IMG/VR virus record: IMGVR_UViG_2513237360_000007 | Span: 1 to 64,000 of that record | DNA: 64,000 nt | Strand: one strand, 5' to 3' | Source: a virus | Taxonomy: Duplodnaviria; Caudoviricetes | Part shown: one piece after another, positions 7,437 through 26,681 of the stretch | Position numbering within the stretch: position 1 is the stretch's first letter | Layout of the letters: the number at the start of each line of letters is the position of its first letter | Made by a program: the position numbers and the translations under genes | The notes under the pieces: generated by a model | What the model was told of the DNA's origin: nothing | Seen by the model: the letters and a program-made list of their open reading frames with translations, nothing else | The model's database searches: none

Positions 7437-7528
7437 TGGTGCAGGTAGGCTGGAATCGAACCAGCGCCGTACAACACCGACATTTAATATCTGGCGCTGT
7501 TGTCCTGCCAACTTGGACTACTACCCGC
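7437..7528 (-). ncRNA. tRNA-like RNA with 8-bp acceptor stem, extended anticodon arm and encoded CCA
   Basis: GCGGGTAG/CTACCTGC acceptor, GTCC/GGAC D stem, GCTGG-TTCGATT-CCAGC T arm, ends ACCA; 11-bp bulged anticodon arm with loop ATTAAAT. Confidence 0.8.
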
Positions 7529-25116: not shown

Positions 25117-25230
25117 AAATGTTTGATTTTATTTGGCCCCAAAATCCACGTTTTTATGATGGTTTTCGGGCACCTTGCAATTTTCGTTATTATGAAGAGA
25201 TAAGAGAAAACACATTGAAGGAGAAATATT

Positions 25231-25860
25231 ATGGAGAAAATGCTGGTAACACAGGCGCTTAATGAATTGAAACTTTTAGATGGTCGTATAAACCGTGCAA
25301 TTTCCAATGGAGAATATGTGGCTGCTGCAAGACTAAACGAATCTAAAGTATCCAGTACCGTGACAAAAGAGGAGTTCATCTCAAATGCCAAGTCCTCGCT
25401 CCAATCAGTAAATGACCTGATTGAAAGGCGTAAAAAGATCAAGGCTGCCGTTGTAATTTCAAATGCCAACACTTTTGTTGACATTTCAGGAGTTTCAATG
25501 ACTGTGGCAGACGCAATTGAACGTAAAGATAGTATTGAGTATGACGAAGAAATTCTGGGAACCCTAAAAAAACAACTAAGCAATGCAAGGGCTACTGTTG
25601 GTCAGAAAAATTTAAATATGGAGCTTCAGATTGACAAAATTGTAGAGTCCTCGTTTGGGAAAGACTCCAGGCAGAAAATCAATTCTGATGATTATGAGGC
25701 CATTGCTAAGCCGTATAGGACGAACAATGAGTATGGTTTGGTTGATCCACTAGGCATTGAGAAACTTATTGCTCAAATGGAGGAAGCCATCCAGGGATTT
25801 ATCTCTAACGTGGATGCTGCTCTGCAGATAAGCAACTGTACGACCTATATTGAATTTTAA
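25231..25860 (+). CDS. Conserved phage coiled-coil protein (209 aa)
   Basis: GGAG RBS; ALNELKLLDGRI...SNANT.V...MTVADAIERK...LVDPL...VDAALQISN; followed by a structured RNA. Confidence 0.85.
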   Translation: MEKMLVTQALNELKLLDGRINRAISNGEYVAAARLNESKVSSTVTKEEFISNAKSSLQSVNDLIERRKKIKAAVVISNANTFVDISGVSMTVADAIERKDSIEYDEEILGTLKKQLSNARATVGQKNLNMELQIDKIVESSFGKDSRQKINSDDYEAIAKPYRTNNEYGLVDPLGIEKLIAQMEEAIQGFISNVDAALQISNCTTYIEF

Positions 25861-25889
25861 TACATGCAAGCCTTAATTTAAAAGAAAAT

Positions 25890-26238
25890 AGTTTGGCATG
25901 GTTGTGCGAAAATTCCAAATTCACACACCTTCTCAAATAGGAAAATTTGAATATTAAATCCAATACGAATACTGTTAATAGAAAACAGAATAATGGATAT
26001 TAAAACATATTATCTAATTGAGCAAAGTATGCATTCTTTAATGCAAAAGATGCTGGCTTACTTTTTATAAAAATGCTTAATATTCAATCATCAATTCTAA
26101 ATTCTTACATTTCAATCATCTTATGATTAATCATCAATTATAAATCCTAAATCATCGATAAAATCCTATAAGATTGGTTAGCGCCGCTTGTGTGATTAGG
26201 CCGGAATGGTCCAATAGGCTGCCCAGCCATGCCAAACT
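25890..26238 (+). ncRNA. About 350-nt multi-stem ncRNA candidate with internal AATCATC repeats
   Basis: 15-bp terminal helix AGTTTGGCATGGTTG/CAGCCATGCCAAACT; internal TTGAATATTAA/TTAATATTCAA, ATCCA/TGGAT, CTGTT/AACAG, TCACAC/GTGTGA. Confidence 0.7.
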
Positions 26239-26253
26239 TTCTTGAAATAAAAT

Positions 26254-26327
26254 GCGAATATTGAGTAATGGCTATCTCCCTTGCCTTCCAAGCAAGTATA
26301 TTGCTGGTTCGAATCCGGTTATTCGCT
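26254..26327 (+). tRNA. tRNA-Gly(TCC)
   Basis: GCGAATA/TATTCGC acceptor; CTTGC-CTTCCAA-GCAAG anticodon arm; GCTGG-TTCGAAT-CCGGT T arm; no encoded CCA. Confidence 0.85.
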
Positions 26328-26337
26328 TTTACTTATA

Positions 26338-26409
26338 GCTGGCGGAAGGTCGGATATCTTACTAAGCCTCATAAGCTTGGTCAAACAGGTTCAACTCCTG
26401 TGCGTAGCA
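26338..26409 (+). tRNA. tRNA-Met(CAT)-like, imperfect acceptor stem (possibly degenerate)
   Basis: TAAGC-CTCATAA-GCTTG anticodon arm; ACAGG-TTCAACT-CCTGT T arm; acceptor GCTGGC/GCGTAGC needs a bulge. Confidence 0.65.
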
Positions 26410-26513
26410 AGCAAGTCAAATTTCACTTGATCTATAGAGTCATCCCCAGCATGACGTACTTTTTTTAATGATATGGGAAAATAATAATCAAACTATGAAA
26501 GGTAGGTAATAAT

Positions 26514-26681
26514 ATGGCAGTTGTTACAAACAAAAATGCAGACCCAAGAACTGCGGAGCAGAGAGCTAACGATGCTGCTCAGAATGTCCGTCCCAAAGGT
26601 GCCCAGGATACAGCCTATGTAACCACCGGTCCCGCCACTGGGGTAGAGGACGAACGCGCCAAAGATACAGAAACTCAGTAA
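26514..26681 (+). CDS. Small hydrophilic protein (55 aa, MAVVTNKNADPRTAEQRANDAAQNVRPKG...)
   Basis: GAAAGGTAGGT RBS; below ORF-track cutoff; lies between tRNA genes. Confidence 0.7.
   Translation: MAVVTNKNADPRTAEQRANDAAQNVRPKGAQDTAYVTTGPATGVEDERAKDTETQ

Follow-up and report, generated by a model that had tools for sequence, protein, structure and literature searches.

A gene of phages and bacteria coupled to a knotted RNA with heptad repeats

What is made by a locus in which a protein gene of no known family is followed directly by a long, folded region devoid of open reading frames? The question is raised by a 64,000-nt stretch of Caudoviricetes DNA (positions 1 to 64,000 of the IMG/VR record IMGVR_UViG_2513237360_000007; henceforth the window), for which an earlier note, written from the letters alone, had described a gene for a 209-aa protein with a closed, multi-stem, repeat-bearing RNA behind it. 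As described below, the gene and the RNA constitute a module that is real, widespread and uncatalogued, being absent from both Rfam and Pfam, and no description of this gene-plus-RNA module was found in the searchable literature.

The gene and the RNA in the window

An ORF-free gap of 393 nt separates the 209-aa ORF from tRNA-Gly, and the MFE fold of the + strand is better than that of shuffled sequences (z = -2.6; for the - strand, z = -1.3). The features of the locus are as follows (positions are those of the window):

25133..25160, + strand: weak candidate sigma-70-type promoter of the gene-plus-RNA unit (TTGGCC-16-TATGAT, 9/12; consensus match only)
25231-25860, + strand: partner-protein gene, 209 aa, PHROG 1491, homologue of T5.085 (from ORF call and homology)
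25890-26238, + strand: whole structured RNA, 349 nt, with bounds from helix P1
25890..25908, + strand: 5' arm of P1, pairing with 26220-26238
25909..25919, + strand: A-rich junction, family consensus GAAAAC NNN AAA
25921..25926, + strand: P2, 5' strand TCACAC of the long-range pseudoknot, pairing with 26190-26195
25928..25950, + strand: probable 5' H-type pseudoknot (CCT 25928-30/AGG 25939-41; TCAAAT 25933-38/ATTTGA 25945-50)
25951..26071, + strand: variable middle region with local hairpins, poorly conserved in length and sequence
26072..26120, + strand: heptad tract 1, seven 7-nt units (AATGCTT AATATTC AATCATC AATTCTA AATTCTT ACATTTC AATCATC)
26114..26128, + strand: short inter-tract hairpin AATCAT-CTT-ATGATT; relatives have a hairpin at the same place
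26129..26156, + strand: heptad tract 2, four units (AATCATC AATTATA AATCCTA AATCATC)
26155..26166, + strand: conserved motif UCGAUAAAAUCC, at the same relative place with <=2 mismatches in 40/73 distinct loci
26165..26169, + strand: P3, 5' strand, pairing with 26214-26218
26183..26201, + strand: P4 hairpin (GCC 26183-85/GGC 26199-201), whose loop holds the P2 3' strand GUGUGA (26190-95)
26214..26218, + strand: P3, 3' strand, then conserved GGCUG
26220..26238, + strand: 3' arm of P1, pairing with 25890-25908
26254..26327, + strand: tRNA-Gly(UCC), 15 nt after the RNA (ARAGORN, Rfam)

The long helix that the earlier note had proposed to close the RNA is real: it extends over 19 positions (25890-25908/26220-26238) with one U/C mismatch, begins 29 nt after the stop codon and encloses the rest of the gap. 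The proposed pairing of TCACAC (25921-26) with GTGTGA (26190-95) holds as well, as the covarying long-range helix P2, which is a pseudoknot because its 3' strand sits in the loop of the P4 hairpin, within P3. An 11-bp perfect helix of TTGAATATTAA (25947-57) with TTAATATTCAA (26077-87), also pointed out in the note, is present in the window but is not conserved, being absent from relatives at 65-77% protein identity (L092-L097). Since it is not kept in these relatives and competes with the first repeat units and with the 5' pseudoknot that is common among relatives, we treat it, on present sequences, as lineage-specific or fortuitous. The AATCATC copies that the note had placed in a probably unpaired tract proved to belong to a 7-nt periodic array of seven units (26072-26120) and four units (26129-26156). 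Finally, the statement that the RNA lies directly before a tRNA cluster holds in part: one tRNA-Gly is found at 26254-26327, together with a tRNA-like stretch called by neither ARAGORN nor Rfam. This stretch, just 3' of tRNA-Gly (26336-26412, + strand), contains a T-arm-like GGTTCAACTCC and has the ends GCTGGCGG...GCGTAGCA; it is not called a tRNA even by relaxed ARAGORN, and it recurs behind the RNA in two other loci (L035 and L090). A 55-aa ORF without a family match follows the tRNA region (26514-26681, + strand) and occupies the same place in L090 and L091. Elsewhere in the window (7437-7528, - strand), ARAGORN reports a tRNA-like gene of 92 nt whose two-base anticodon is undetermined.

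The earlier note had been unable to assign the RNA to a named Rfam family, and this stands: Rfam 15 gave no match to the RNA in the window or 27 related loci, and at the gathering threshold returned tRNA only (window and 23 related loci). Relaxing the search to E up to 10 for the window region and E up to 1 for four relatives yielded nothing relevant. GOLLD, ROOL, tmRNA, RNase P, RAGATH-27 and all other families of release 15 can be set aside as identities of the RNA for want of a covariance-model match. A blastn search of the window RNA against the phage collection found no similarity; the window's clade is too distant from the isolates. A skipping-rope RNA (Rfam RF02924, 54 bits) was seen just 3' of the module in Paenibacillus xylaniclasticus (L117:2519-2647).

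Coupling, spread and transcription of the module

The occurrence of the RNA was followed with R1, a covariance model of its 3' domain. In the window, R1 matches at 26120-26235 (60.9 bits), which is its sole match there and in the whole 74.6-kb record of this provirus, a prophage from a gut bacterium. R1 finds one + strand match per locus, just behind the gene: there are 69 matches in 76 phage and metagenome sources (422 kb in all; these include T5-like phages, PVP-SE1, Bcp1, PHB09, 949 and River4) and 73 within 80 independent bacterial-genome loci, again at the same position behind the gene, even though these 80 loci had been found via the protein alone. Of 91 Bacillaceae genomes taken without bias, 16 carry the gene with the RNA beside it, 74 carry neither and one holds a deletion remnant, so that the RNA is found in 17 genomes and the protein in 16. 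In the seventeenth genome (G023, L213:1274-1470) a single deletion took away the gene along with the RNA's 5' half; what survives, directly after a permease gene, is the 3' half with its terminator. Overall, the coupling of gene and RNA holds across >150 loci. The earlier note would have been refuted by homologous genes lacking a downstream structured region, which is clearly not what these matches show, and the protein-RNA pair that it inferred is borne out as a coupling of gene and RNA, with physical binding remaining an inference.

Homologues of the 209-aa protein were detected by tblastn in 739 phage records, from T5-like (T5.085), rV5/PVP-SE1-like, Bastille/Bcp1-like and Otagovirus phages to Lactococcus 949, Vibrio Thalassavirus and Erwinia jumbo phages, and the module itself was seen in T5-like, rV5-like, Bastille-like, Otagovirus, Lactococcus 949 and Vibrio phages and in bacterial genomes. 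The module is also cellular, since in Bacillus safensis and Lysinibacillus it lies, without a prophage, among PTS, permease, methyltransferase, fumarase and similar genes. Its flanking genes differ everywhere, the settings including prophages, the T5 early region and housekeeping genes. A tRNA is found <=600 nt away in many relatives, and T5-like phages carry the module in their tRNA-rich region, where rad, an anti-retron gene, is ~6 kb away. Rad itself (anti-retron, T5/SP15) was considered as the module's identity and rejected, being a separate gene (ORF75, 189 aa, Toprim), as were the anti-Ec83 genes ORF71-73, which are located elsewhere; the module corresponds to SP15 E0157_083. In two relatives at 77% protein identity (L092 and L093, 96-1133 and 2781-3630) the module sits between a phage integrase and Tad2-like/ThsB-TIR-like genes, that is, in a setting of defence and counter-defence genes. 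A Parabacteroides-labelled MAG contig (L114:2098-2800) carries one protein gene followed by two different full RNAs in tandem, with two R1 matches 357 nt apart. In many T5-like records the RNA region is covered by a second annotated 'hypothetical protein' (e.g. L184, phage SP15, 41821-42901 of the record); such short ORFs are likely to be spurious.

The partner protein is unexplained by any known family: Pfam, NCBIfam and PADLOC contain no family for it, and a search of the PDB by sequence did not explain it either. Its AlphaFold2 model (pLDDT 91) is an elongated all-helical bundle of five long helices with one small two-stranded beta-hairpin, in which an RRM sheet is absent. Searches with the fold and structure (Foldseek against the PDB, VIA-align wide, BFVD and ESM Atlas) returned solely uncharacterised relatives or generic helical bundles; they revealed no known RNA-binding relative of the fold and no fibre-like fold, and the best solved match was 3kdq, from Corynebacterium and of unknown function (Z 10). 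The 'tail fiber protein' label of PHROG 1491 rests on annotation alone and finds no support here; the gene copies lie in early/tRNA regions and in phage-free chromosomes. The most conserved block, residues 63-101, surrounds the beta-hairpin, at the tip of which K/R is conserved, and the conserved basic tip comprises R67, K71, the beta-hairpin, R98 and K99. Overall, the protein is mildly acidic (pI 5.0-6.6, net charge -7 to 0).

Intrinsic + strand terminators lie directly after P1 in Bcp1, PHB09, Lactococcus phage 949, River4 and all Bacillus loci, and at the window and many other loci a tRNA follows ~15-100 nt after the RNA. In the T5-like phage AKFV33, T5-type promoters are annotated ahead of T5.086-T5.085 and again immediately behind the RNA but nowhere in between, and no promoter-like site was found on the + strand of the window between gene and RNA. 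The positions of terminators, tRNAs and AKFV33 promoters therefore place the RNA in the 3' part of the transcript of the gene itself; in the window, processing of tRNA-Gly probably determines where the RNA ends. Gene and RNA occur together in 441 T5-like records. Between the 23 distinct T5-like copies, per-column variability is 0.015 for the RNA and 0.034 for the gene, with the heptads nearly invariant. Members of the B. pumilus and B. licheniformis groups show almost no variation in the 3' domain and slow change in the heptads.

Covariation and heptad repeats

An unannotated gap of 390-480 nt was present directly 3' of the homologous gene in all annotated phages examined, and a similar gap, often with tRNAs next to it, was found in nearly all of 80 IMG/VR loci. 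The gaps share the order UCGAUAAAAUCC, helix CCNNN...NNNGG, GGCUG, and AAAUCC is nearly universal among the homologous RNAs. Their closing helix has 13-18 bp and a different sequence at each locus. P1 was recognised in 56/73 distinct loci, bounded by ...CG|AAAA(C) on the 5' side and GGC|UG on the 3' side. It was anchored by hand (RNAalifold on raw MAFFT alignments recovered P3 alone) and the 56 loci were chosen for having the helix, so that the paired fraction itself is no test; the tests are the coincidence of P1 with the conserved flanks and its strand asymmetry. Each position shows 4-6 kinds of standard pair across the 56 anchored loci, and the tally of 142 G-U against 10 A-C pairs implies that P1 functions solely on the + strand, as RNA. 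For P2 and P3, a plain, unfitted MAFFT alignment of 33 full-length RNAs is 93.9% paired, with compensatory changes at 10/11 pairs; none of 500 shuffles reached this value, and slid controls gave 27-40%. Taken singly, P2 has compensatory changes at all 6 pairs and 91.9% of cells paired in the plain MAFFT alignment, and P3 has 96-98% of cells paired, with AU, UA, CG and GC all frequent. The support for P4 is modest, its register varying and its alignment being poor. The topology of the 5' H-type pseudoknot recurs with other sequences in many relatives (e.g. L006, L009, L028, L029 and L039, and also T5-like phages), and a generic pseudoknot scan of the 5' domain gave a modest excess over shuffles (mean 12.1 vs 10.8); as judged from sequence, this is a probable second knot of the family. 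Because G-U pairs far outnumber A-C pairs and terminators or tRNAs come after the element, the comparative evidence identifies the element as an RNA on the + strand.

In the repeat array, a lag of 7 is the strongest period in 62/73 distinct homologous loci, in the form of U-n-A chains at 7-nt spacing, typically with 7 units in tract 1, 4-5 units in tract 2 and a short hairpin between them. Both tracts lie at fixed distances from AAAUCC, and the U and the A, two bases apart, are invariant. The unit consensus is (A)(G)(U)-U-Y-A-A, that is, UYAA with three freer bases, and these free positions are strongly biased to AGU-like triplets within one RNA. That the units hardly differ in number or position between very distant phages speaks for a defined architecture and against a loose sponge whose length varies. 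Coding sequence is excluded for the tract by its 7-nt period and by the frequency of UAA. Likenesses of the heptads to T-loops, anticodon loops or RNase E sites were set aside, being pattern-matching on A/U-rich motifs without support, as were the ideas of 16S helix 17 and a divergent RNase P RNA.

A proposed dedicated particle and its alternatives

The reading that we favour, with a probability of roughly one half, is that gene and RNA make a dedicated RNA-protein particle in which the knotted core is a handle and the fixed row of heptads is a track of equivalent binding sites. The RNA, its strand, fold and repeats, and its coupling to the gene are established by the comparisons above, whereas binding, stoichiometry (the copy number on the track) and role are inferred. 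Under this proposal the module would be self-contained and in two parts, yielding one ribonucleoprotein. The gene and the RNA would be co-transcribed from a promoter 5' of the gene, with the RNA as the 3' portion ending at an intrinsic terminator or, via an RNase P cut, at the next tRNA. P1 would then lock the ends of a closed core, P2 would fasten the 5' end to the loop of P4, within P3, and the second, 5' pseudoknot would probably be part of the same core, which would display two single-stranded tracts of phased UYAA-plus-three units, typically 7 + 4-5. The partner protein is inferred to bind the RNA through its basic tip (R67, K71, beta-hairpin, R98 and K99), for which there are no binding data, and the heptads are inferred to be equivalent sites occupied by repeated copies of one ligand, which could be the partner protein itself or a cellular factor that it brings. 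Selection would hold the repeat sequence fixed, without reprogramming. Against such a particle it must be said that no experiment or complex prediction ties the protein to the RNA, that an acidic protein would be unusual for coating some 80 nt of RNA, that its fold (best match 3kdq, Z 10) has no known RNA-binding relative and that P4 and the 5' pseudoknot are modestly supported; the heptads might instead serve RNA-RNA contacts, self-assembly or a host protein. More tentatively, and as no more than a possibility, the module might be a new kind of RNA-scaffolded machine, common to phages and bacteria, in which a knotted core and a helical protein hold a fixed row of about a dozen heptads in phase; this row would recognise or organise some conserved nucleic acid or protein of the cell, e.g. 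tRNAs or the translation apparatus.

The module shares only single features with RNAs and RNA-protein systems that are already known. Like OLE RNA and Oap, it pairs a large structured bacterial RNA with a dedicated protein encoded next door, but it has an unrelated fold, lacks membrane partner genes and is mostly viral. Like tmRNA with SmpB, the RNA is ~350 nt long, has paired ends and pseudoknots around a single-stranded tract and has a small partner protein; in contrast to tmRNA, it has no tRNA-like domain and no tag reading frame and is called by neither ARAGORN nor Rfam. A tmRNA is rejected because ARAGORN finds none and the 7-nt periodicity, with UAA in all frames, excludes a tag frame. 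Short single-stranded motifs, set in a phased or repeated row that fits multiple subunits or copies, are also found in the trp leader bound by TRAP and in CsrB, RsmZ and CrcZ, from which the module differs in motifs, spacing, proteins and context, and nothing here identifies the protein that reads the heptads. The same verdict of single shared features applies to type III antitoxins and to GOLLD and ROOL. The earlier note had drawn analogies with type III antitoxins, Csr/Rsm sponges and GOLLD/ROOL, which stand as resemblances in one feature each, but no test of membership was passed.

We considered whether the heptad row could titrate an RNA-binding protein or a nuclease of the host, as a sponge or decoy in the manner of CsrB/RsmZ or CrcZ, with the partner protein stabilising or delivering the RNA. 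The many equivalent short single-stranded sites on a structured scaffold, the acidic protein, and the positions of the module ~6 kb from rad in the T5-like tRNA-rich region and beside Tad2-like and TIR genes in L093 would all suit such a role, which we nevertheless hold to be doubtful: the carriers span phages of Gram-negative and Gram-positive hosts as well as Bacillales chromosomes, where the module lies among housekeeping genes, so that a single common target would have to be universal, and the UYAA core matches no binding motif among those that could be tested. A self-assembling RNA-only machine, such as is reported for GOLLD and ROOL, in which the upstream protein would serve merely to assemble or stabilise the RNA, appears unlikely. 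GOLLD and ROOL are large, ornate, phage-borne RNAs of unknown role near tRNA genes (PMC12286853), and the knotted RNA described here is found in the same setting of phage tRNA regions; it is also more conserved than the gene in T5-like phages. Against this, the RNA is strictly coupled to a gene and was lost jointly with it in one genome, it has no Rfam match to GOLLD or ROOL, nor any sequence or structure match, and it differs from both in being smaller, in its heptad array and in always having a dedicated upstream protein gene. Strict coupling to a protein gene is, to our knowledge, not a reported feature of GOLLD or ROOL.

Type III toxin-antitoxin pairs of the ToxIN family, in which the toxin cuts an RNA of ~36-nt repeats, encoded 5' of its own gene, into single units, are likewise two-part modules of a protein and a repeat RNA in phages and chromosomes. 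That the repeat RNA here neutralises a harmful protein in this way is suggested by a mobile, stand-alone protein gene with a repeat-bearing RNA, yet we judge it very unlikely. The RNA is downstream and not upstream, its units are of 7 nt within one knotted, closed fold of 300-400 nt and are not ~36-nt repeats to be cut apart, and the module is kept in hundreds of strictly lytic T5-like phages; the tandem repeats of ~30-45 nt that in type III systems lie upstream of the toxin gene, with a terminator in between, are lacking. The partner protein is not nuclease-like in fold, and no PADLOC, Pfam or PDB match to a ToxN/CptN/TenpN-type endoribonuclease was found, an absence that does not exclude a distant relation. 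A guide resembling VIPR, in which the protein holds the UYAA cores and the three freer bases of each heptad jointly read a target by a non-contiguous code, is also quite unlikely. VIPR consists of a RAMP protein and ~100-nt vrRNAs of GGY/NN pentads, the NN being hypervariable and target-encoding (10.64898/2026.04.26.720920). The likeness lies in a mostly phage-borne, minimal locus with a protein gene flanked by an RNA, in which, as in vrRNA, short tandem units mixing fixed and free positions (9-16 of them in vrRNA) are followed by a conserved knotted tail (10.64898/2026.04.26.720920), and the two different tandem RNAs of L114 would fit a guide. However, each criterion of membership fails: the RRM core, G-loop and thumb are lacking from the all-helical partner (AF2 model; fold searches give helical bundles only), whereas Vipr is a RAMP with an RRM fold; the 5-nt GGY/NN units of a ~100-nt RNA are replaced by 7-nt units with a U-Y-A-A core and three further bases in a closed 300-400-nt RNA; and the free positions, hypervariable there, are nearly invariant in the 23 distinct T5-like copies, change only slowly in the Bacillus pumilus group and are strongly AGU-like within one RNA. 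On these sequences the module is probably not a guide that is rapidly retargeted. It is highly improbable that the element is only a cis-acting 3' untranslated region controlling the stability or translation of its own mRNA, since a doubly knotted fold of 300-400 nt with a fixed repeat number and greater conservation than the gene would be out of proportion to that task, notwithstanding co-transcription directly after the stop codon. Action as DNA, e.g. as an iteron origin or a protein-binding array, can practically be dismissed: the element does have short direct repeats, AT-richness and inverted repeats, but such action is contradicted by the strand asymmetry (142 G-U vs 10 A-C pairs), the compensatory changes in three helices, the strand-specific terminators and the chromosomal copies far from any replicon function.

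The role of the particle that we propose is unknown. Given where the module recurs (in phage tRNA regions, beside anti-defence genes and, as a stand-alone unit, in Bacillales chromosomes), the role is to be looked for in tRNA or translation biology or in phage-host conflict. If the module were the RNA-scaffolded machine raised above, it would represent a recognition principle apart from CRISPR, VIPR, sponges and type III antitoxins, and that reading is open to direct testing in phage T5 and Bacillus, genetics being available for both T5/E. coli and Bacillus. A 300-400-nt RNA with at least two knots, a fixed repeat track and a dedicated protein of unknown fold family thus occurs in the classic model phage T5, where in T5-like phages it is under stronger constraint than the protein gene, and also in rV5-, Bastille-, 949- and Otagovirus-type phages, gut prophages and common Bacillus, Lysinibacillus and Brevibacillus chromosomes. 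Learning what the module does would give phage and bacterial biology another RNA-protein particle, and the module may account for part of what phage tRNA regions do.
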